Assembly (NCBI GenBank): GCA_900234795.1
Contig: LT962688.1
Span: 1,380,001 to 1,412,000, forward strand
From: Methylorubrum extorquens
GTDB taxonomy: Bacteria > Pseudomonadota > Alphaproteobacteria > Rhizobiales > Beijerinckiaceae
DNA: 32,000 nt
Reading direction: 5' to 3'
This document shows positions 259 to 27,543 of this stretch, in pieces. Within the stretch, counting starts at the first letter, position 1, and each line of letters begins with the position of its first letter. The notes under the pieces are model-generated. The model was not told the origin of the DNA and did not search any database. It saw only the letters and a program-made list of their open reading frames with translations. A program made the translations under genes and the position numbers.

Positions 259-335
259 TGGCAGGAGTGGAGGGACTCGAACCCCCAACCCCCGGTTTTG
301 GAGACCGGTGCTCTGACCAGTTGAGCTACACTCCT
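259..335 (-). tRNA. trnW: tRNA-Trp (anticodon CCA)
   Basis: The reverse complement reads AGGAGTGTAGCTCAACTGGTCAGAGCACCGGTCTCCAAAACCGGGGGTTGGGGGTTCGAGTCCCTCCACTCCTGCCA. It has a 7-bp acceptor stem (AGGAGTG/CACTCCT), an anticodon stem CCGGT/ACCGG with loop CTCCAAA, a GGTTCGAGTCC T-arm and an encoded 3' CCA. It closely resembles E. coli tRNA-Trp. Confidence 0.93.
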
Positions 336-9642: not shown

Positions 9643-10752
9643 ATGTGGGCGGCGTGCCCCGTCCGCAGGAGCCTACGTCACCGGATGAGCCCCGATCCCG
9701 ATCGTGATCGCAGTTTCGTGCTCGCGCAGCGCAGCTTCGAGCTGATGCGCGACTACTGTGCCTGCGCGACGCCGCGGGCCTACGCCGTGTGGTATCTCTA
9801 CGTCTCCGGCACGCAGCCGCTGATGAACGATGCGGTCAAGCGGCTCACGACGCAGAACGGCACGCTGACCAGCGCCGACATCGAAGGGCTCCACGACACC
9901 TACATTGACGGCCGCCGCATGGCCGTGGAGGTGGACCGGATGAATTCGAGCCTCATCGCCGAGGTCGAGGGCATCATGGAAATGATCGAGGTCTCGATCC
10001 GCTCCACCGCCCAGTACGGCGAGTCGCTTCAGGCCCTGTCCCACGACATCGCCAACACGGCCACGAGCCGGACGCGTCTGCGCGAGGTCGTTACGACGAT
10101 CATCGCCAACACCCGCGACGTGACCGCCAACAACCGCACCCTCGAAGCGCGGATGCGCGAGAGCCGCAGCGAGATCGAGGCCTTACGCGAGACGCTGGAG
10201 GCGGCCCGTCTGGAGAGCCTGACCGACGCCCTGACGGGGCTGGGCAACCGCAAGAATTTCGAGGAGTCGCTCCGCAAGAGCGTCGATCGGCAGTCTGCCT
10301 CGGCGCAGCAGGGCAAGCCGGCGAGCCTGATCGTGATCGACATCGATTCGTTCAAGCGCTTCAACGACCTCTACGGCCACCTGACCGGGGATCAGGTGCT
10401 GCGCCTCGTCGCCATCGTGATGCGCGAGCATATCGGTCAGAAAAACGCGACGCTCGCCCGGTTCGGCGGCGAGGAATTCGGCATCGTCCTGCCGGAAACC
10501 GACCGGGTCGAGGCGCGCGCCATCGCCGAGCGGGTGCGCATCGGCGTCGCCGGCCGCGAACTGGTGAAGCGCTCCACCGGCGAATCGCTCGGCAAGGTCA
10601 CGGTCTCACTCGGCGTCGCGACCCAGCGCGAGGATGACAACGCGGTCTCCCTGCTGGAACGGGCCGATGCCTGCCTGTTCGCCGCCAAGCGCGCCGGCCG
10701 CAACCGCACTCTCGACGAGACCGAGGTCGAGAACCTGCGCGACGTCGCCTGA
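9643..10752 (+). CDS. Diguanylate cyclase (GGDEF domain, GGEEF active site) with N-terminal coiled-coil sensor-like region
   Basis: 369 aa. The GGDEF domain includes DALTGLGNRKNF, DIDSFKRFNDLYGH and RFGGEEFGIVL. No RxxD I-site lies 5 residues upstream of GGEEF. ATG 9643 is preceded by GGAG at a 6-nt spacing. Confidence 0.9.
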   Translation: MWAACPVRRSLRHRMSPDPDRDRSFVLAQRSFELMRDYCACATPRAYAVWYLYVSGTQPLMNDAVKRLTTQNGTLTSADIEGLHDTYIDGRRMAVEVDRMNSSLIAEVEGIMEMIEVSIRSTAQYGESLQALSHDIANTATSRTRLREVVTTIIANTRDVTANNRTLEARMRESRSEIEALRETLEAARLESLTDALTGLGNRKNFEESLRKSVDRQSASAQQGKPASLIVIDIDSFKRFNDLYGHLTGDQVLRLVAIVMREHIGQKNATLARFGGEEFGIVLPETDRVEARAIAERVRIGVAGRELVKRSTGESLGKVTVSLGVATQREDDNAVSLLERADACLFAAKRAGRNRTLDETEVENLRDVA

Positions 10753-10805: not shown

Positions 10806-11186
10806 TCAGGCCGTAGCGCCGGCCGTGAGCCGCTCGGGATTGACCGGCGTGATCGCCACGGATTCGCCGCAGCCGCAGGCCGAAGTCTGGTTCGGGTTGT
10901 TGAACACGAACTGCGACGACAGCTTGGTCGTCTGGAAATCCATCTCGGTGCCGAGCAGGAACAGCACCGCCTTGGGATCGATGAACACGGTCACGCCCCG
11001 GTCCTCGATCACGTCCTCGCCGGCTTTCCGCTCCTCGGCATACTCCATCGTGTAGGACATGCCGGCGCAGCCGCCGTTCTTCACGCCGACGCGCAAACCG
11101 GCGATCGGCGTCTCCGCATCGGCCATGATCGCCTTGAGCCGGTCCGCGGCGCGGTCGGTCAGCGTGATCACCTTGAAACTGGACAT
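10806..11186 (-). CDS. sufA: Iron-sulfur cluster insertion/assembly protein, A-type carrier (SufA/IscA/ErpA family)
   Basis: 126 aa starting at ATG 11186 (MSSFKVITLTDRAADRLKAI), preceded by GGAGAG. The three conserved Cys are in GGCAGMSY and CGCGESV. Confidence 0.9.
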   Translation of the reverse strand: MSSFKVITLTDRAADRLKAIMADAETPIAGLRVGVKNGGCAGMSYTMEYAEERKAGEDVIEDRGVTVFIDPKAVLFLLGTEMDFQTTKLSSQFVFNNPNQTSACGCGESVAITPVNPERLTAGATA

Positions 11187-11343
11187 TGGGGTCTCTCTCC
11201 TGCGGCCGGGTTCAAGGCCCGGGCGGGTGAGGGGTTTTCGTACATCTGCAAAGATAAGCACTCCCCCGGCGCCGGTCCACCAGGAGACCGGGCACACCGG
11301 ACGATTGCAGCCGTGCTATGCTGAATTGGTGACGGAGCGCACG

Positions 11344-11949
11344 ATGGCCGAGCCTGCTGGGCGGCGGATGACGCCGGACGAGTTTTTCGCGTGGCAGCTC
11401 CATCAGGACGAGCGTTACGAACTCGTCGATGGCATCCCGATCCTGCGCCACCGGATGATGACCGGCAGCAGCACGCAGCACGATCAAGCCACCGTCAACA
11501 TCATTGCTTCGCTGCACGCACAACTGCGCGGCTCTGGCTGCCGGCCGACGACGGCGGACATCGCGATCCGAACCGGCATTCGCGATCTGCGACGCCCCGA
11601 CGTGATGGTCGAGTGCGCCGAACTCGTTCGCGACACCTACGAGGCCCGCGAACCGCGGCTGGTCGTCGAGGTCGCCTCCCCCTCGACGAGCGCCGTTGAT
11701 CGGACGCGCAAGCTGGAAGAGTACAAGCGCCATCCGACCCTGCGCTGCATCCTTCTCGTCGAGACCGTCCTGCCGCAGGTTCTCCTCTATCGCCGCAACG
11801 ACGTGGGCTGGGCGATCGAGACCTTCGACGGTCTCGCGGCGATCATCGATTTGCCCGAGATCGGTGCGCGGCTGACGCTGTCGGACATCTACGATGGATT
11901 GACGTTCGGACCGCATTGGGATCCGGCCGCCCCCCAACCAGAGGGCTGA
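11344..11949 (+). CDS. Uma2-family (DUF820) putative restriction-endonuclease-like protein
   Basis: 201 aa starting at ATG 11344. MTPDEFFAWQLHQDERYELVDGIPI, then RRPDVMVEC and EPRLVVEVASPST, give the PD-(D/E)xK-like D...EVxS signature of Uma2. The KLEEYKRHPTLRCILLVE region also fits the family. Confidence 0.85.
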   Translation: MAEPAGRRMTPDEFFAWQLHQDERYELVDGIPILRHRMMTGSSTQHDQATVNIIASLHAQLRGSGCRPTTADIAIRTGIRDLRRPDVMVECAELVRDTYEAREPRLVVEVASPSTSAVDRTRKLEEYKRHPTLRCILLVETVLPQVLLYRRNDVGWAIETFDGLAAIIDLPEIGARLTLSDIYDGLTFGPHWDPAAPQPEG

Positions 11950-20549: not shown

Positions 20550-23500
20550 TCAGGCCGCCCGTGCCACAGCCTCGGCCGCCGCGTGCACCACGGGCACGGC
20601 AGGCGCGCCCTCCCATTCCGAATGTGCCGGGATCGACTCGCCCTTCATGACGATGGTGAGCGGGCGCAGCCGCGCGTAGTCGCCGACATGGCTGTCGTAG
20701 AGGACGGTGGAGAAGGCGCCCACCGTGACGCCGCGCCCGACCACGACGCGGCCGACCTTCATGATGCGATCCTCGTAGAGATGGGTCTGGAGCGCGGCCG
20801 AGCGGTTGATCGCCGCGAAGTCGCCGATCTCGACGCAGTCGAACTCGGTGATGTCGGTCATCAGCAGGCAGGCGCCCTTGCCCACCTTCACGCCGAAGAG
20901 CCGCAGCATCCAGGGCAGGAACGGCGTGCCCATCAGGTGCTCCAGCAGCACCTTGCCGGCGAGTCCCCAATAGGCGACGGCGATCGCCTCGGTCCGCATC
21001 GCCCACCACGACCACATCGGCCGCATGCCGGGGCGGTAGCGTCCCATCAGGAGCCATTTGAGGGCGATGACGCTGCTCGTCTGGATCAGCGCGATGGCGA
21101 GGCTCACGAGCACGAAGGCAAGCGCCAGCCCGCCCCAATCCTCGGCGAGGATGGCCGGGTAGAACACCCAGTCGATCGCGCAGATGGCGAGCGAGATGTA
21201 GAGCATCGGCGAGAACGAGGTGGCGAAGGCCTCGAACAGGCCGCGCCGCAGCTTGGCCCACACGCTCGGCTCGAAGGTCTGGGCGTTGGAGCCGAGATCG
21301 ACCTTCTGGCGGACCGGCAGGCGGATCGGCGGTGAGCCGAACCACGTCTCGCCCGGCCCCATCTTGTCGTTGGCCGGCGGCTTCGACTTGATGCCGATCA
21401 GCACGTCGTCGGGGATGTGCGCGCCCGGCGGCAGCACGCCGTCATTGCCGACGAAGACGCGGGCGCCGGTCTCTACGGGATGGAGATGCATCCAGCCGCG
21501 GCGGATCTCCTCCTCGCCGACCACCACCTCGTCGGCGATGAAGTTGTTGGCGCCGACCGCGACGAGGTCGTGGCGCGAGCCGAGATTGGTCGAGATCTCG
21601 GCGCCCCTTCCCATCCGCGCGCCCATCAGCCGGTACCAGGCCCGCATGTAGACGGTGGCGAACAGCGAGGAGAGCGTCTCCAGCGTCACTTCGGAGGCGA
21701 GCGCCACCAGCCACTTGCGCAGGTAGAAGCCCGACCAGATCGAGAAGGTGCCGTGCGTGACCCGCGGCAGCACCGCCCAGCGGATGGCGGCGATGAGCAG
21801 CACCGTGCCCGCCGTCATCAGCATGGCGGTGGGCCAGGTCAGCAGCGGCAGGTAGACGTGGTAATCGACGTCGGTGAGTTCCGAGAGGTTATCGGAGATC
21901 TGGTCGAAGAGGTAGAAGGCCGGGAAGATCGGCAGCAGGCCGACCGCCGGCACCGCCGCGAGCAGGAAGGCGTAGACCGCACCGAAGGCCGCCCGGCGGG
22001 CGGGCGAGGCGGTGGCCGGTTCGGGCAGCGCGGAAAAATCGACGGTGCCGACCCGGCGGCCCGGCGAGCCGTCCCAGGCCTCGGCCGGGCCGACTTCGGT
22101 GCCGGCCGGCACGGTGGTGAGGTCGGCGATCTCGGCATGGTCTCCGATCACCGTGCCGGGGCCGATCACGCAGGAGGTGCCGATGGCGACATCCTCGCCG
22201 ATCTCGACGGAGCCGATGACGAGTTCGTTGCCGACGACCTCCGCGTTGGCGATCACCAGCCGCCCGCCGAGCGACGCGCCGCGGCCGATGGTGAGCAGAT
22301 CGGGTGCGCCGACATCGAGGTCGGAGATCAGCACGTCATCGCCGATCCGCGCGCCGAGCAGGCGCAGATAGGTGACGATGACGGGGGAGCCCTGGAGCCA
22401 CTTGATGTGCACCAGCGGCGTCAGGCGCTGCGCCAGCCACCAGCGGTAATAATAGACGCCCCAGAGCGGATAGCGGCCGGGCTTTGTCCGCCCGAGGATC
22501 AGCCATTTGGCGGCGATCGCGATCGTCGCGGTGACCGCGTTGATGCCGATATAGACCAGCAGGAGAACGCCGAGTTCGCCCCAGAAGCCGAGCCCGCCGC
22601 CGGTGAGCAGCAGGTAGGTGACGAAGATGCCGAGCCATTGCGCGGTGGCCAGCGCGATGACGAAGGGCAGCGTGATTGCCTGCGCCAGCCCGCAGAGCGC
22701 CCGGCGCAGCAGCGGGGGCGGAGCAAAGCTCAGGTCGCGGATCGCGGTCTGGGCGCCGGCCCCGCCCGTGCGCTCGATCAGACTCGCGGCCATCACCCGC
22801 AGGGTGCGGCCGTTATAGACGTCCTGCAGGGTGATGCCAGCGAGCGCCGGGATCTCGCGCACCGCACCGACGAAGCGGGCGGCGAGCAGCGAGTGGCCGC
22901 CGAGTTCGGAGAAGAAGTCGGCCTCGAGCCCGATCGGACCGTCGCCGAACACCTTTTTCGCCGCCGCCAGCAAAGCGGCCTCGGTCTCGTTGTCGGGGGC
23001 CTCCTGCTCGCCGTCGGCCACCGCCACGGTCAGCGGCGCGATCCGAAGCGCCTTGCGATCGACCTTGCCGGAGGTGAGCCGCGGCAGGGTCTCGACCGTC
23101 TCGAAATGGCCGGGCACCATGTAGGGCGGCATCTGCGCCGCGAGATTCTTTCGCAGCGCCGCGCGGTCGAGGGCGGCATTCCGCTCAGGCACGAGGAAGG
23201 CGACGAGGCGGTCGACCTCGTCGTCGCGGCGCAAGACCACCGCCGCCTGATTGATCCCGTCCTGCGCCCGGATGCGCGCCTCGATCTCGCCGAGCTCCAC
23301 GCGAAAACCGCGGATCTTGACCTGATCGTCGATGCGGCCGTGGAAGACGATGTCGCCCTCCGGCGTCATCGAGACCGCGTCGCCCGAGCGGTAGAGTACC
23401 GGATCGGCCCCGTCGGACGGGTAGGGGTTGGCGACGAATTTTTCCGCCGTCAGTTCGGGCCGCTTGAGGTAGCCGGCCGCGACGCCGGGGCCGCCGATCA

Positions 23501-24656
23501 GCAGCTCGCCTTGCTCGCCCGGCGCGAGGAGGTTCAGCGCCTCGTCGGCGACGTAGACCGAATAATTCGGGATCGGGCCGCCAATGGTGACGGGCCGGCC
23601 CGGCCGCATCTCGGCGGCGGTCGCCACCACGGTGGCTTCGGTCGGGCCGTAGGTGTTGAACAGGCGCCGCTCACGGATCGCCCAGCGCGCCACCAGCGGC
23701 TCGGGCAGGGCCTCGCCGCCGAGCAGCACGAGGCGGACACTCGGCAGGTCGCCGGGGATCATGGCGAGCAGGGTCGGCACCGTGTCGAGCACGGTGATCC
23801 CGGCCTCCGCGATGATCGCGGGCAGGGATTCGACGTCGCCCATCATCGCCGGGCTCGCCACGAACAGGCAGGCGCCGACGAGATAGGGAACCCAGATCTC
23901 CTCCATCGAGAGATCGAAGGCGACGGAGGCGCCCTGGAACACCACGTCGTCGGCGCCGAGGCCGTAGACCGCGTTGCCCGAGCGCAGGAAGTGGCAGATG
24001 TTGGCGTGGCTGATGACGATGCCCTTCGGCACGCCGGTCGAGCCCGAGGTGTAGATCAGGTAGGCCGGGTGCTCCGGCCCGAGGCCGGCAGCGTCGAGAT
24101 CGGGCGCGGAGGCTCCCTGCCGGGCCCGCAGAAGCGCTTCGGTGGTGACGGCGGGCGTGCCCTCCGGTGCCTGCGGCCGCAGGGCCTCCGAGACGAGGAG
24201 CGCCTTGGCCTCGGCATCGTTCAGGCAGACCGCGACCCGGTCGGCGGGCGCCTCGGCGTCGAAGGGCAGCCAGGCGGCGCCGGATTTCGTGATGCCGATC
24301 TGCGCGATCAGCAGTTCGGTGCCGCGGGCCATCCACAGCCCCACGACGTCGCCGGGGCCGATGCCGCGGGTGGACAGCCCGGCGGCGATGGCGTCGGAAC
24401 GGGCATCGACCTCCGCATAGGACAGGACCGGACGGCGCCCGCCGGAGCCGGGCTCAGCGGCGTCGATCAGGCAGGGCGCGTCAGCGCGCGCAGCGGCGCT
24501 CGCCCGGAACAGGTCGGCCAGGGTCTCCCGGCGGATCAGATCGGGCCGCGCAGCCCCCCGTAGAACGGCGCGGCCACCGAGGCGCTCGCCCGGTCCTTCG
24601 TCGTGCCGTCCCACCTCGGCGAGACCGCTCATCCGATGCTCTGCTGCCGATTCCAC
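20550..24656 (-). CDS. Pls/PosA-family single-module non-ribosomal peptide synthetase (A-T plus three membrane-embedded LbH/acyltransferase-like domains); putative homopoly(amino acid) synthetase
   Basis: 1368 aa from GTG 24656, or 1360 aa from ATG 24632. Adenylation cores are LSYAEVD, TKSGAAWLPFD, YLIYTSGSTGVPKG, FDLSMEE, NTYGPTE, GELLIGGPGVAAGYL, YRSGD, GRIDDQVKIRGFRVELGEIE, PPYMVP and SGKVDRKAL. The carrier domain has FFSELGGHSLLA. No C or TE domain is present. Instead there are three tandem repeats, each with two hydrophobic helices followed by a hexapeptide-repeat segment (for example IGDDVLISDLDVGAPDLLTIGRGASLGGRLVI). Confidence 0.9.
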   Translation of the reverse strand: MESAAEHRMSGLAEVGRHDEGPGERLGGRAVLRGAARPDLIRRETLADLFRASAAARADAPCLIDAAEPGSGGRRPVLSYAEVDARSDAIAAGLSTRGIGPGDVVGLWMARGTELLIAQIGITKSGAAWLPFDAEAPADRVAVCLNDAEAKALLVSEALRPQAPEGTPAVTTEALLRARQGASAPDLDAAGLGPEHPAYLIYTSGSTGVPKGIVISHANICHFLRSGNAVYGLGADDVVFQGASVAFDLSMEEIWVPYLVGACLFVASPAMMGDVESLPAIIAEAGITVLDTVPTLLAMIPGDLPSVRLVLLGGEALPEPLVARWAIRERRLFNTYGPTEATVVATAAEMRPGRPVTIGGPIPNYSVYVADEALNLLAPGEQGELLIGGPGVAAGYLKRPELTAEKFVANPYPSDGADPVLYRSGDAVSMTPEGDIVFHGRIDDQVKIRGFRVELGEIEARIRAQDGINQAAVVLRRDDEVDRLVAFLVPERNAALDRAALRKNLAAQMPPYMVPGHFETVETLPRLTSGKVDRKALRIAPLTVAVADGEQEAPDNETEAALLAAAKKVFGDGPIGLEADFFSELGGHSLLAARFVGAVREIPALAGITLQDVYNGRTLRVMAASLIERTGGAGAQTAIRDLSFAPPPLLRRALCGLAQAITLPFVIALATAQWLGIFVTYLLLTGGGLGFWGELGVLLLVYIGINAVTATIAIAAKWLILGRTKPGRYPLWGVYYYRWWLAQRLTPLVHIKWLQGSPVIVTYLRLLGARIGDDVLISDLDVGAPDLLTIGRGASLGGRLVIANAEVVGNELVIGSVEIGEDVAIGTSCVIGPGTVIGDHAEIADLTTVPAGTEVGPAEAWDGSPGRRVGTVDFSALPEPATASPARRAAFGAVYAFLLAAVPAVGLLPIFPAFYLFDQISDNLSELTDVDYHVYLPLLTWPTAMLMTAGTVLLIAAIRWAVLPRVTHGTFSIWSGFYLRKWLVALASEVTLETLSSLFATVYMRAWYRLMGARMGRGAEISTNLGSRHDLVAVGANNFIADEVVVGEEEIRRGWMHLHPVETGARVFVGNDGVLPPGAHIPDDVLIGIKSKPPANDKMGPGETWFGSPPIRLPVRQKVDLGSNAQTFEPSVWAKLRRGLFEAFATSFSPMLYISLAICAIDWVFYPAILAEDWGGLALAFVLVSLAIALIQTSSVIALKWLLMGRYRPGMRPMWSWWAMRTEAIAVAYWGLAGKVLLEHLMGTPFLPWMLRLFGVKVGKGACLLMTDITEFDCVEIGDFAAINRSAALQTHLYEDRIMKVGRVVVGRGVTVGAFSTVLYDSHVGDYARLRPLTIVMKGESIPAHSEWEGAPAVPVVHAAAEAVARAA

Positions 24657-24878
24657 GTGCTGCCCATTCCCGGATCGGTCGAACCCCGCGCCGACGCTGG
24701 CGGCGCGCGATCCCGCGCCCCATGCTCGGCACCCTTGGCGGTTTTGCGACAGGATCGCGCCATACGGATGATTGTGGTCGAGAGACCCGCCCGGATGTCC
24801 CGCACGCGTTCCATATACGGGATGGGCGGCCAGGAAACCGGTCTTCCCGAACAGCCCGGACCTGCGATGCCGCCCGGC

Positions 24879-25772
24879 TCAGCCGGTGACGAGGTGCAGG
24901 GCCCGGTCGGCCGGCGCGATCCGCACCTGCCGGCCCCAGCCGAAGCCGAGAAAGTCCTGCTCGATTCCGTCGGCGAAGATCACGCCGCCCTCGTTCATCC
25001 GCGAGGTGACGACCAGCGGCGCATCGGTGAGCTTGCCGGCGCGCAGCCGCGTCGCGGTGGCGACGCTCGGGAACGGCTCGCGCACCCAGTAGCCCACCGC
25101 CCGCTCGTCGGGCTCGAGCGGCAGGTCGAGCCGGGTCGCCTCACTGATCGAGCGGGCCCAGCCGGTCGCCCCGGTGCCGGAGGCGACGATAAGGCCGCTG
25201 GAGGAATGCTCCTCCGCCTCGCTTCCGGCCTCGATCCGGTAGCGCGCGGATTGGTGGCTGCGGTGGCCGACAAAAATCTCGTTGAGGGCGAACAGGCGCT
25301 CGGTGCCGTCGATCACCGCCTGGACCATGGTGCGCCGCTCGATTGCGGCCGCGCCGGCGACGCTCGCCGGCAGCAGCCGGGCCAGCCGCTCGACGGGGTT
25401 GCGCGCCAGCACGCCGTCATAGAGGTCCGGCGCCGGGTTCACCCCGATCACCGGCTGCTCGCCTAGATACTTGGCGACGTTGGCGATCAGCCCGTCCTGC
25501 CCGACGGCGACGACCACGTCGTCCCCGGCGAACAGGAAGCGGTCGAGGTCGGCCCGCCGCACCAGGGCCTGGCGCCACTCGCCCGGCACCGCGGCCCGCG
25601 CCTGTGCCAGCACCGCGTGGAAGCGCTCGTGGCGGGCCTCGACCGCGGCGAGCCCCTGGCCGCGGCTCTCGAGGAAGAAGCGGGCCTGTCCCCGCGTGGC
25701 GTGCCGGGCGATCAGCAACTCGTAATCGGTCTCGCGGGTGACGAAGACCACCCGGGGGGTAAGCGCGGCCAT
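24879..25772 (-). CDS. NAD kinase-fold protein (ATP-NAD kinase/DAGK superfamily), atypical
   Basis: 297 aa. VVVAVGQDGLIANV replaces the GGDG motif. NEIFVG matches the NE/D motif. SSGLIVASGTGATGWARS matches the Gly-rich TPTGSTAY-like motif. The start lies 9 nt after the SPFH gene stop. Confidence 0.75.
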   Translation of the reverse strand: MAALTPRVVFVTRETDYELLIARHATRGQARFFLESRGQGLAAVEARHERFHAVLAQARAAVPGEWRQALVRRADLDRFLFAGDDVVVAVGQDGLIANVAKYLGEQPVIGVNPAPDLYDGVLARNPVERLARLLPASVAGAAAIERRTMVQAVIDGTERLFALNEIFVGHRSHQSARYRIEAGSEAEEHSSSGLIVASGTGATGWARSISEATRLDLPLEPDERAVGYWVREPFPSVATATRLRAGKLTDAPLVVTSRMNEGGVIFADGIEQDFLGFGWGRQVRIAPADRALHLVTG

Positions 25773-25781
25773 GAGCCCCCC

Positions 25782-26762
25782 TCAGCGGGCCGGAAGGCTG
25801 GCCGGCCGGCGGACCTCGCCGAGCAGGGTGGCGAGGAGGTCCGGCGTGACGTTCACGTGCTCGATCGTGTCGAGCTTGCCCGCCAGCGCCTGGGCGGCCA
25901 GCCCGAGCAGGGTGCCCGGCGCCACGTCGCGGTAGATCGCGATGCGGGCCCGCTCGGCCTCGGCCCGCGCGCCCTCGACCATGCGGATGCGTTCGGCCTC
26001 GGCGCCGGCCTCGATCCCTTCCGCCTCCGCCCGCGCCTGCGCTCGGTTGCGGGCGTTCTGCGCTTCCTCGGCGATCAGCAGGCTCTCGCGCCGGGCCAGT
26101 TCGGTCTTGGTGGCGAGTTCGTTCTCGGCGATGGCGCGCTCCTTCTCCACCGCCAGCGCCCGGCGGGCGAAGGTGGCCTCGTCCGCCTTCTGCTGCAGCG
26201 CCTCGTAGGTCGGTGTCTGGAGCGCGCGCTCCAACTCGCTCGACGGAGCGAGGTTGGTGAGCCGCACCGAGACCACCGCGACGCCGATCTCGGCCAGCGA
26301 CGGATCGTTGGCGAGCGTCGCCTGCACCTGCCCGCGCAGGGCCTCCGGCCCGGCATCGAGCAGGGTGCGCACCGGCGCGGTTCCGAGGAATTGCAGCACG
26401 GTCTGGTTGGCCAGCCCGGCGATGCGCGCCTCGATCCGCTCGACCGGCTCGGTCTGGAGCCGGCCGGTGCGCAGATCGAGGGAGAAATCGACGCGGGCGG
26501 CGAGCCGCTCGGGATCGGCGACGTGCCAGCCGATGCTGCCCTGCACCGCAACCGCCTGGAAATCCGCGCTGCGGCCGCGGACGAACAGCGTCATCTCGCG
26601 GTCGTCCATCGGCAACTCGCTGATGCTCGCCGTCTCCGGCCGGAACCAGAAGACGAGGCCGCGCCCGCTCTGGCGCGGGCGGCCGTTGCGGTAGCGGATG
26701 ACGTAGTGGCTCGCCTCGCTCCTGAGCTGGGAGAGCACGCCGAAACGGCGGATCGTGGCCAT
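25782..26762 (-). CDS. SPFH/Band-7 (stomatin/flotillin-like) domain protein lacking an N-terminal membrane anchor
   Basis: 326 aa starting at ATG 26762 (MATIRRFGVLSQL). The SPFH core ends in VVSVRLTNLAPSSELERALQ, followed by an Ala/Glu/Arg coiled coil (AEEAQNARNRAQARAEAEGIEAGAEAERIRM). No hydrophobic N-terminal helix is visible. Confidence 0.85.
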   Translation of the reverse strand: MATIRRFGVLSQLRSEASHYVIRYRNGRPRQSGRGLVFWFRPETASISELPMDDREMTLFVRGRSADFQAVAVQGSIGWHVADPERLAARVDFSLDLRTGRLQTEPVERIEARIAGLANQTVLQFLGTAPVRTLLDAGPEALRGQVQATLANDPSLAEIGVAVVSVRLTNLAPSSELERALQTPTYEALQQKADEATFARRALAVEKERAIAENELATKTELARRESLLIAEEAQNARNRAQARAEAEGIEAGAEAERIRMVEGARAEAERARIAIYRDVAPGTLLGLAAQALAGKLDTIEHVNVTPDLLATLLGEVRRPASLPAR

Positions 26763-26763
26763 G

Positions 26764-27543
26764 TCAGTCTCCTTGAGCGGGGGTCTGCCAAGAGGTTTGG
26801 GACGGGGTCTGCGAAGAGGTTTGGCGAAGGCGGTACAGCTCGGCGGGGCGATAGGAGGTGCCCGTCTCGAACCGGCCGGTGGGGTCGAGCCAGCCGCGGT
26901 CGAGCATGCGGCGGCGGAAGGCGGGCTTGTTGAGGCCCGTGCCGAGGATCGCCTCGTGCACGTCCTGAAGCTGGCGCAGAGTGAACAGCTCCGGCAGCAG
27001 GGCGAAGCCGACCTCCGAATAGTCGAGCTTGCCCCGCAGACGCCGGATCGCCAGCGCGACGATCTCGGCGTGGTCGAAGGCGAGCGGCAAAGCCGCGCCG
27101 TCGGCCGCATGGACCGTCACGGATCCCTCCGCCGCGGGCGACGCCGCGACCGCGCCGGGAATCAGGGCCGGGGCCCGCGCCCGTGCCTCGGCGAAGGCCG
27201 CCTCGGTCAGGAGCGCGAGATAGGCGACCGTGATGATGCGCATGCGCGGATCGCGCTCCACCGCGCCGAAGGTGTAGAGCTGCTCCAGATGCGCCCGCGC
27301 CCCGCCCGCCTTCTCGCGCAGGACGCGCGCGGCGGCGTCATCCAACGACTCGTCGATCCCGACGAAGCCGCCGGGCAGCGCATGGCGCCCCGCATGCGGG
27401 TGCCGGTCGCGCTTCAGCAGCAGGAGGGTCGGGCGACCGCCGGAAAGGCCCAGCAGCACCAGATCGACGGCCACGGCCGGCCGGGCGTAATCGGCGGGAT
27501 CGTAGCGCGCCAGGAAGGCGGCCTCGGATTCGGCTTGGCTCAT
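26764..27543 (-). CDS. NrtR-like Nudix-related transcriptional regulator (degenerate Nudix domain plus C-terminal winged helix)
   Basis: 259 aa. The Nudix box GGFVGIDESLDDAAARVLREKAGG keeps Gx5E and the Arg but has lost two of the three REUxEE glutamates. The C-terminal FTLRQLQDVHEAILGTGLNKPAFRRRMLDRGWLDPTG matches the NrtR wHTH region. The stop lies 1 nt before the SPFH start. Confidence 0.85.
   Translation of the reverse strand: MSQAESEAAFLARYDPADYARPAVAVDLVLLGLSGGRPTLLLLKRDRHPHAGRHALPGGFVGIDESLDDAAARVLREKAGGARAHLEQLYTFGAVERDPRMRIITVAYLALLTEAAFAEARARAPALIPGAVAASPAAEGSVTVHAADGAALPLAFDHAEIVALAIRRLRGKLDYSEVGFALLPELFTLRQLQDVHEAILGTGLNKPAFRRRMLDRGWLDPTGRFETGTSYRPAELYRLRQTSSQTPSQTSWQTPAQGD

Follow-up and report, generated by a model that had tools for sequence, protein, structure and literature searches.

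A Pls/PosA-family synthetase with an uncharacterised DLED-type substrate pocket in Methylorubrum extorquens and related alphaproteobacteria

Every full-length member of the Pls/PosA family tested to date makes an isopeptide-linked homopolymer of a diamino acid (PMC10522769), and the poly-lysine and poly-ornithine products are antimicrobial. According to papers citing Yamanaka et al. (2008), Pls and PosA adenylate the amino acid, bind it as a thioester and elongate the chain through iterative attack by the side-chain amine. Pls of Streptomyces albulus, the epsilon-poly-L-lysine synthetase (7wew; Yamanaka et al. 2008, as described in citing papers), carries six transmembrane helices and three tandem acetyltransferase-like units, and PosA of Acinetobacter baumannii, the delta-poly-L-ornithine synthetase (8g95-8g98, PMC10522769), is built from an adenylation (A) domain, a thiolation (T) domain and a terminal domain. 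The actinomycete synthetases for poly-diaminopropionate (poly-Dap), poly-diaminobutyrate (poly-Dab) and poly-beta-Lys belong to the same family and reaction type, and several of them adjoin monomer-supply genes, e.g. for lysine 2,3-aminomutase. In the present study, a gene encoding a single-module non-ribosomal peptide synthetase (NRPS) of this family was analysed in a stretch of 32,000 nucleotides of Methylorubrum extorquens (contig LT962688.1, positions 1,380,001 to 1,412,000; hereafter the window), and the coordinates of its features are collected in Table 1. Herein, we propose that the product of this gene is probably, by analogy with Pls and PosA, a functional homopoly(amino acid) synthetase embedded in the membrane, with a substrate pocket that matches no characterised family member.

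The gene and its group have been recognised before. At NCBI the orthologues are entered as "Pls/PosA family non-ribosomal peptide synthetase", and the deposited identical proteins carry this family name; in genome papers based on antiSMASH, Methylobacterium genomes are listed with one cluster of the NAPAA ("non-alpha poly-amino acid") type (PMC11610968). The group with pocket codes beginning in DLED has also been published: a Bosea genome note reports the code DLedLgTVvK for NAPAA clusters, Rhizobium hainanense carries DLEDIGTVVK, and the 2023 table of Patel & Gulick lists Methylobacterium sp. WP_056379773.1 (DLEDLGTVTK) with the substrate "#", denoting an uncharacterised binding pocket (PMC10522769). 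These codes are the same as that of the present protein or differ at one position, the taxa overlap, and there is no substantive difference between the published group and the present protein. Given these precedents, the novelty implied in a preliminary description of this DNA, made from the letters of the window, was overstated. The present study adds the monophyly of the DLED proteins with their sister group, the vertical conservation of the gene, the purifying selection acting on it and its housekeeping context without a partner gene.

The gene is an uninterrupted open reading frame (ORF) of 1368 aa from a GTG at 24656, or of 1360 aa from the deposited start, an ATG at 24632. The 1360-aa version matches exactly the deposited proteins ARO52992.1, SOR28112.1 and KQQ13481.1 (Methylorubrum extorquens/zatmanii; 23 contigs), which bears out the earlier placement of the gene in an alphaproteobacterial chromosome, and exact-sequence look-ups with the GTG starts at 24656 and at 24614 returned no deposited match. 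The GTG at 24656 is the start that NCBI uses for the orthologue of Methylorubrum aminovorans, the best representative cluster (93% identity). Since conservation among the orthologues begins only around residue 30, either GTG 24656 or ATG 24632 may be the true start. The G+C content across the gene (0.67-0.73) is the same as that of the surroundings, and, in comparison with the closest orthologous locus, the ratio of nonsynonymous to synonymous substitution rates (dN/dS) is 0.18, indicating purifying selection; values from more distant loci were saturated and hence not used. Thus, the ORF is a genuine gene under selection, and the possibility that it arose by chance from the high G+C content of the genome was rejected.

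The N-terminal half of the protein contains one A domain and one carrier domain. Pfam AMP-binding was matched at residues 50-397 (2.6e-80) and AMP-binding_C at 457-531, and the amino-acid adenylation model TIGR01733 scored 409 bits against a cutoff of 317. The core motifs A3, A5, A7, A8 and A10 were all located and are intact, namely YTSGSTGVPKG at 202, NTYGPTE at 334, YRSGD at 422, GRIDDQVKIRGFRVELGEIE at 440 and SGKVDRK with K531. Pfam PP-binding scored 22.4 bits against a cutoff of 20.8; Ser589 (nt 22890-22892) is the phosphopantetheine attachment site, and G586-G587-H588-S589 is invariant in the orthologues. Condensation and thioesterase domains had no Pfam match in the protein at E<=0.01, in keeping with the preliminary description. 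The closest solved A domain is that of PosA (8g95-8g98, 385 bits), against 208 bits for that of the more distant Pls (7wew); the PDB entries 8g95-8g98 are labelled "dimodular nonribosomal peptide synthase", although their sequence equals PosA in the supplement of the paper. A closest relationship of the A domain to module 2 of LgrA, a Gly activator, with little likeness to Pls, was considered and rejected, because the LgrA score sums two A-domain matches of ~176 bits each and the A core alone favours PosA.

The last domain of the protein, of ~700 aa, is the terminal domain that defines the family. NCBIfam TIGR02353 aligned from residues 658-1353 to positions 2-695 of its 695 positions with 587.2 bits, against a cutoff of 423.1; a search with such a model had been named beforehand as a possible refutation of the Pls/PosA layout, and the layout was upheld over the full length of the model. 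Kyte-Doolittle hydropathy revealed six hydrophobic helices in three pairs, at ~652-721, 889-964 and 1143-1204. When an alignment of ten orthologues was cut into the units 645-882, 883-1137 and 1138-1368, these were mutually homologous by hhalign, with probabilities of 99.5%, 99.6% and 96.9%. An AlphaFold2 model of the last 730 aa (predicted local distance difference test, pLDDT, 88.6; predicted TM-score, pTM, 0.89) repeats three times a pattern of helix pair, short helices and a ladder of short strands, in agreement with what Patel & Gulick described for PosA from AlphaFold (PMC10522769). Foldseek against the PDB matched only left-handed beta-helix proteins, with a probability of 1.00 for most of the top matches; the neighbours were serine, maltose and galactoside acetyltransferases, AntD, LpxD and gamma-carbonic anhydrases, each covering one unit (query TM-score, TMq, <=0.16). 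Hydropathy, hhalign, AlphaFold2 and Foldseek thus agree on the three tandem units of two transmembrane helices and a left-handed beta-helix that had been read from the translation. No solved structure spanning the whole terminal domain of a Pls-type protein was found in the PDB up to April 2026 by Foldseek, nor was a solved terminal-domain structure found in the literature.

The fold of each soluble unit is common to the trimeric left-handed beta-helix acyltransferases (serine, maltose and galactoside acetyltransferases, AntD and LpxD), and the model of Patel & Gulick packs the three PosA units like such a trimer (PMC10522769). In the present protein, however, the three "subunits" are fused and alternate with membrane helix pairs, and a carrier-bound aminoacyl thioester would be used in place of the acyl-CoA of those enzymes. 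The third unit contains a QTHLYEDR motif that is invariant within the DLED clade. Among 97 aligned family sequences, QTHL[FY]EDR is exact in 82 and its His is kept in 95, irrespective of substrate type, and the motif is common to PosA; unlike the published family criteria, this one was derived in the present analysis from the 97 sequences. Left-handed beta-helix acyltransferases employ a catalytic His, and by analogy we propose that the motif, with His1292, may form part of the active site.

The substrate code of the A domain is DLEDLGTVVK, as read from an alignment to the sequence of the PosA crystal structure together with the published PosA code; the same code had been derived by hand in the preliminary description. 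PosA residues D217, M218, E221, H260 and N280 correspond to D248, L249, E252, D291 and L311, and the remaining columns pair G with G313, T304 with T335, V312 with V343, S313 with V344 and K with K531. The same columns return the published PosA code, DMEHNGTVSK, which validates the mapping. D248 and E252 (code positions D235 and E239) align with PosA D217 and E221, a pair that holds the substrate by its two amines and is conserved in the A domains of the family (Patel & Gulick, PMC10522769); this family-wide pair is therefore present. The acidic residues at 239 and 278 had earlier been taken to fit a basic substrate, and this agrees with a 2025 compilation in which the E239/D278 pair is found in Lys (DGEDHGTVVK), Orn (DGEDHGTVTK and DMEDVGSVDK) and Arg signatures (consensus D-[AV]-E-D-[IVL]-G-A-[VI]-[TD]-K) (PMC12283262), with the caveat that the PosA residue at position 278, His260, makes no substrate contact (PMC10522769).

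The D, E, G, T, V and K of the PosA pocket are common to both proteins, and the differences are Met to Leu at position 236, His to Asp at 278, Asn to Leu at 299 and Ser to Val at 331, the last a substrate contact in PosA. Position 236 has been proposed to set the substrate's chain length, with Phe for Dap/Dab, Met for Orn and Ala for Lys (Patel & Gulick, PMC10522769), and Leu is nearest in size to Met. Seven of the ten code positions are shared with the Pls code, DAESIGTVVK, including an identical GTVVK tail; the Ala at 236 of Pls makes room for lysine, whereas Leu stands here. The actinomycete codes, DFEYVGTVTK (poly-Dap), DFECLSAVTK and DFECLSCVSK (poly-Dab) and DGESVSVVNK (poly-beta-Lys), carry Phe or Gly at this position, unlike the present protein. 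Neither the Lys-type pocket (DAESIGTV[VI]K with Ala at 236; positions 2, 4 and 5 differ) nor the Orn-type pocket (DMEHNGTVSK with Met218 and Ser313, here Leu249 and Val344; four of ten positions differ) was found, and the protein is therefore neither Pls nor PosA in the strict sense.

Relatives of the protein were found in at least 377 species in a scan of one genome per species, including Methylosinus and Rhodoblastus. Protein identity to the orthologues is 88-93% in Methylorubrum, 75-85% in Methylobacterium, 64-70% in Enterovirga, Salinarimonas and metagenome-assembled genomes (MAGs) of other Methylobacteriaceae and Beijerinckiaceae, and ~63-64% in Bosea, Microvirga, Chelatococcus and Alsobacter. 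Outside Hyphomicrobiales, many Azospirillum carry a relative at ~61% identity. In an alignment of 121 sequences, containing the present protein, PosA and the 120 best database clusters, DLEDLGTVVK is identical in 118; it also occurs in 53 of 80 genome loci, the rest, including those of Azospirillum and Methylosinus, being DLEDIGSVVK-like. An exhaustive search with the terminal domain yielded 649 clusters at 50% identity (E<=1e-30). By the first four code letters, the 97 aligned sequences comprise 43 DAES (Lys type), 14 DMEH (Orn type), 10 DLED and 7 DGES (beta-Lys type), and some 14 more have DFE- or DFD-type codes. In a distance tree, the DLED clade was monophyletic in 40 of 40 bootstraps, and its immediate sister was a pair of DMEH proteins with codes of the PosA type (39 of 40). 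PosA is collinear with residues 29-1358 at ~40% identity, and the DAES-type representatives show ~29-36% identity in the terminal domain. This phylogeny, which had been called for with known family members, suggests that the DLED clade split off from the ornithine-type lineage and that its pocket was remodelled.

As judged from sequence comparison, the DLED gene is vertically conserved across Methylobacteriaceae, Boseaceae and Beijerinckiaceae and occurs also in Azospirillum. The Azospirillum (Rhodospirillales) proteins, at ~61%, are equal in identity to the Bosea level, which hints at lateral transfer between orders. In many Azospirillum assemblies (loci L049, L052, L055, L057, L058, L059 and L061, from Azospirillum and an allied Roseomonas record), the assembled sequence extends for only 450-820 nt on the upstream side of the NRPS gene, suggesting that a repeated element just upstream of the gene breaks Azospirillum assemblies.

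Because the DLED clade branches beside Orn-type enzymes, the monomer is most likely a diamino acid of the ornithine/lysine class. Among single monomers, ornithine may be put forward as a tentative first candidate and lysine as a possible second one; Dab appears doubtful, and the same holds for arginine or another basic analogue and for any monomer outside these. To the observed architecture, family membership, catalytic motifs, code, phylogenetic position, conservation and lack of partner genes, we join a mechanism in which the chemistry of adenylation and thiolation, polymer formation, export and catalysis by His1292 are all borrowed from the characterised relatives, Pls and PosA. The A domain would pick a basic L-amino acid and activate it to the aminoacyl-AMP, with Asp248 holding the alpha-amine and Glu252 the side-chain amine, like Asp217 and Glu221 of PosA. 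The amino acid would then be loaded as a thioester onto the phosphopantetheine arm of Ser589. The C-terminal domain, in which six membrane helices would bear a cytoplasmic pseudo-trimer of the three left-handed beta-helix units, would catalyse the repeated step in which a free monomer or the growing chain attacks the thioester through its side-chain amine. The product would be an isopeptide-linked polycation, released from the cell.

Several observations weigh against this proposal. Four of the ten pocket positions differ from PosA, among them the contact residue Ser313, which is Val here; the S313A mutation in PosA lowers the efficiency 183-fold (PMC10522769), and ornithine is therefore no safe call. 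No characterised DLED-type enzyme was found in literature searches that excluded the supplement of PMC12283262, and Patel & Gulick mark the group as having an uncharacterised pocket (PMC10522769); among papers after 2023, none was found that assays the DLED group or solves the terminal domain. The vertical conservation of the gene in housekeeping synteny is unlike a typical secondary-metabolite island. In addition, a scan with the sigma-70 consensus gave no promoter-like site, although this consensus is ill-suited to high-GC alphaproteobacteria and the promoter and terminator scans were uninformative.

The genomic neighbourhood was compared across the 80 related loci, and no neighbour gene is conserved with the NRPS gene across genera. 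As had been noted, neither an exporter nor a Pld-like hydrolase gene was found beside the gene. Genes for monomer supply (Dab or Dap synthesis, lysine aminomutase) were absent from the window and likewise from the related loci, in contrast to several of the actinomycete synthetases, and PADLOC gave no defence-system match for the NRPS. PosA has likewise been reported without cotranscribed partners (PMC10522769), and the present gene stands alone in the same way; it differs from PosA in its alphaproteobacterial host and its vertical conservation. From this comparison, the context of the gene is best described as vertical inheritance within a core block, with no biosynthetic cluster, and the housekeeping synteny may point to a physiological role that is new to the Pls/PosA family.

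Three sets of neighbours were considered as functional partners and rejected. Upstream on the same strand lies a trio at 24879..27543 (-), encoding an NAD-kinase-like protein (297 aa; weak similarity to NAD kinase and diacylglycerol kinase, best NCBIfam score 33.7 bits against cutoffs >200), an SPFH/band-7 protein and an NrtR-type regulator with Nudix and winged helix-turn-helix domains (159 bits to the model of an ADP-ribose-responsive repressor, below cutoff). The trio was rejected since it occurs in only 3 of the 80 loci; this distribution suggests that it was inserted in the M. extorquens group alone, and its function may be NAD-related. Downstream, the suf operon, a cysteine desulfurase and an alpha/beta hydrolase are syntenic in 21 loci, all of Methylobacterium/Methylorubrum except for one MAG (L069), in which SufB and an aminotransferase lie 6-7 kb downstream of the NRPS gene without a hydrolase match; this side was rejected on account of that distribution. 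A de novo neighbour search revealed that in 46 loci, and in most of the other genera, the NRPS gene is preceded at 99-421 nt by a same-strand histidine phosphatase (His_Phos_1) gene (e.g. L036 8967-9698, L004 9127-9861 and L042 9021-9692). FabI and a DnaJ-like gene lie beyond the phosphatase on the upstream side, and chorismate synthase follows downstream in Bosea and its allies. These genes were rejected as a biosynthetic cluster because they are housekeeping genes and adjoin the NRPS gene neither in the window nor in those Azospirillum loci that have upstream sequence. The arrangement is probably conserved housekeeping synteny with no functional link, and the phosphatase may be co-transcribed with the NRPS gene in the related loci.

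The alternatives to a polymer of the ornithine/lysine class differ in which part of the machinery they alter. In one, the machinery is the same and the monomer is new, i.e. arginine or a non-proteinogenic basic amino acid resembling Arg or Lys, which would give an undescribed polymer type. We regard this as unlikely. The E239 and D278 pair is a hallmark of the Arg-activating consensus, to which the protein fits at seven of ten positions (PMC12283262), the pocket is unlike that of any characterised family member, and a Bdellovibrionales member with an odd pocket showed only modest activation of L-Arg (PMC10522769). However, the same pair stands in the Lys and Orn codes given above, Leu at 236 is bulkier than the Ala or Val of Arg domains, and positions 322 and 331 differ as well (PMC12283262); moreover, isopeptide polymerisation calls for a better nucleophile than a guanidinium group, and the sisters of the DLED clade bear Orn-type codes. 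In another, the terminal domain would mainly attach the activated basic amino acid, or a short oligomer, to an envelope acceptor other than an amino acid, such as a lipid head group with glycerol or a polymer of the cell surface; the enzyme would then modify surface charge like MprF or Dlt instead of making a secreted polymer. Hydroxyl acceptors are known to be accepted by Pls, which both in vivo and in vitro joins alcohols such as glycerol and polyethylene glycol as esters to the end of the chain (PMC9606270); the posA knockout phenotype is marginal and the natural role of such polymers is called unclear in the literature; and inheritance in a core-genome context across several families is unlike that of a typical antibiotic gene. 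Despite these points, nothing in the present data supports such a transfer directly, all assayed family members release free homopolymers, and no gene related to lipids or the envelope is conserved beside the NRPS gene, so that little probability is given to it.

The gene might also be a silent or decaying relic without a current product, as the lack of a promoter-like site in the consensus scan would allow, subject to the poor fit of that consensus to such genomes. This is very improbable, given an intact frame with identical copies from several strains, intact catalytic motifs, the low dN/dS and a pocket strictly conserved over hundreds of species. A broader reading, to which we give only an outside chance, is that the DLED clade is more than a further source of secreted antimicrobial polycations and serves the envelope of Methylobacteriaceae, Boseaceae, Beijerinckiaceae and Azospirillum as a core-like function passed on vertically, either a polymer of a new monomer or the grafting of surface charge. 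If true, it would mean a polymer of an Arg-like or other basic monomer unseen in nature, or basic residues grafted onto a membrane or surface acceptor. The homopoly(amino acid) synthetase acting on an ornithine/lysine-class monomer is thus the explanation that we favour.

The hosts of the DLED gene include Methylobacterium and Methylorubrum, which are dominant on leaf surfaces, and Bosea and Azospirillum, which are common in soil and roots. A conserved single-gene route to a polycation could bear on competition with fungi and bacteria, the PosA product being antifungal, and could also affect surface attachment or membrane charge. The substrate of the DLED group would supply a new rule linking monomer to pocket in the Pls/PosA family. 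The practical value is limited, as the gene is already correctly annotated and the question of the monomer was explicitly raised in 2023; which polymer is made, and why so many plant-associated alphaproteobacteria retain the gene, is a real question that the literature has already posed.

Table 1. Coordinates of the NRPS gene, its domains and residues, and other features of the window
Feature	Position	Strand	Basis
Whole gene, Pls/PosA-family single-module NRPS	20550..24656	-	uninterrupted ORF, stop codon 20550-20552
Adenylation domain, residues 50-531	23064..24509	-	Pfam, TIGR01733, core motifs, PosA A domain 8g95
Pocket residues D248, L249, E252, D291, L311, G313, T335, V343, V344	23625..23915	-	alignment to PosA
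Pocket residue K531	23064-23066	-	alignment to PosA
Carrier (thiolation) domain, residues 561-624	22785..22976	-	Pfam PP-binding; motif FFSELGGHSLL
Pls/PosA terminal polymerisation domain, residues 658-1353	20598..22685	-	TIGR02353
Membrane helix pair 1, residues ~649-721	22494..22712	-	hydropathy and AlphaFold2 helices
Left-handed beta-helix unit 1 (C1 in Pls nomenclature), residues ~765-872	22041..22364	-	Pfam Hexapep and DCTN5, AlphaFold2, Foldseek, hhalign
Membrane helix pair 2, residues ~885-964	21765..22004	-	hydropathy and AlphaFold2 helices
Left-handed beta-helix unit 2 (C2), residues ~1014-1113	21318..21617	-	hhalign, AlphaFold2, Foldseek
Membrane helix pair 3, residues ~1132-1204	21045..21263	-	hydropathy and AlphaFold2 helices
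Left-handed beta-helix unit 3 (C3), residues ~1257-1349	20610..20888	-	hhalign, AlphaFold2, Foldseek
Q-T-H-L-Y-E-D-R motif in unit 3, residues 1290-1297 (His1292)	20766..20789	-	97-sequence family alignment
DUF5397 gene, 70 aa	20259..20471	-	29.1 bits vs Pfam cutoff 26
VapD/Cas2-like gene, 92 aa	19981..20259	-	PADLOC Cas2 7.5e-13; VapD and Cas2 profiles below cutoff
tRNA gene	262..335	-	Rfam 70.5 bits
GGDEF diguanylate cyclase and Uma2-family putative endonuclease	9643..10752 and 11059..11949	+	

No riboswitch or other RNA was found in the 5' region of the NRPS gene. A segment, ATCCGTATGGCGCGATCCTGTCGCAAAACCGCCAAGG, lies there at 24733..24769 (-), ~100-135 nt upstream of ATG 24632, with the core GTCGCAAAA-N2-GCC. 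It is kept upstream of the Methylorubrum orthologues even where the upstream gene is different (L003, L033), and persists in degraded form in some Methylobacterium (L013, L015, L017); it is likely a promoter or operator remnant that travels with the NRPS gene. An upstream DNA motif conserved across genera was rejected, as the signal is above the null only in Methylorubrum and close Methylobacterium.

The gap of 590 nt from the NRPS stop to the alpha/beta-hydrolase gene is not empty and contains the DUF5397 gene and the VapD/Cas2-like gene, with the stop and start overlapping in GCTGATG. The 92-aa protein scored 36.5 bits to NCBIfam VapD (below the cutoff of 100) and 21 bits to Pfam Cas2 (below cutoff), and no CRISPR context was present in the window. 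The two genes are probably a toxin-antitoxin pair of the vapXD type. The suf operon runs in the order sufA, sufS, sufD, sufC, sufB, followed by a NifS/IscS-like desulfurase, and the Uma2-family putative endonuclease gene is inserted beside it.

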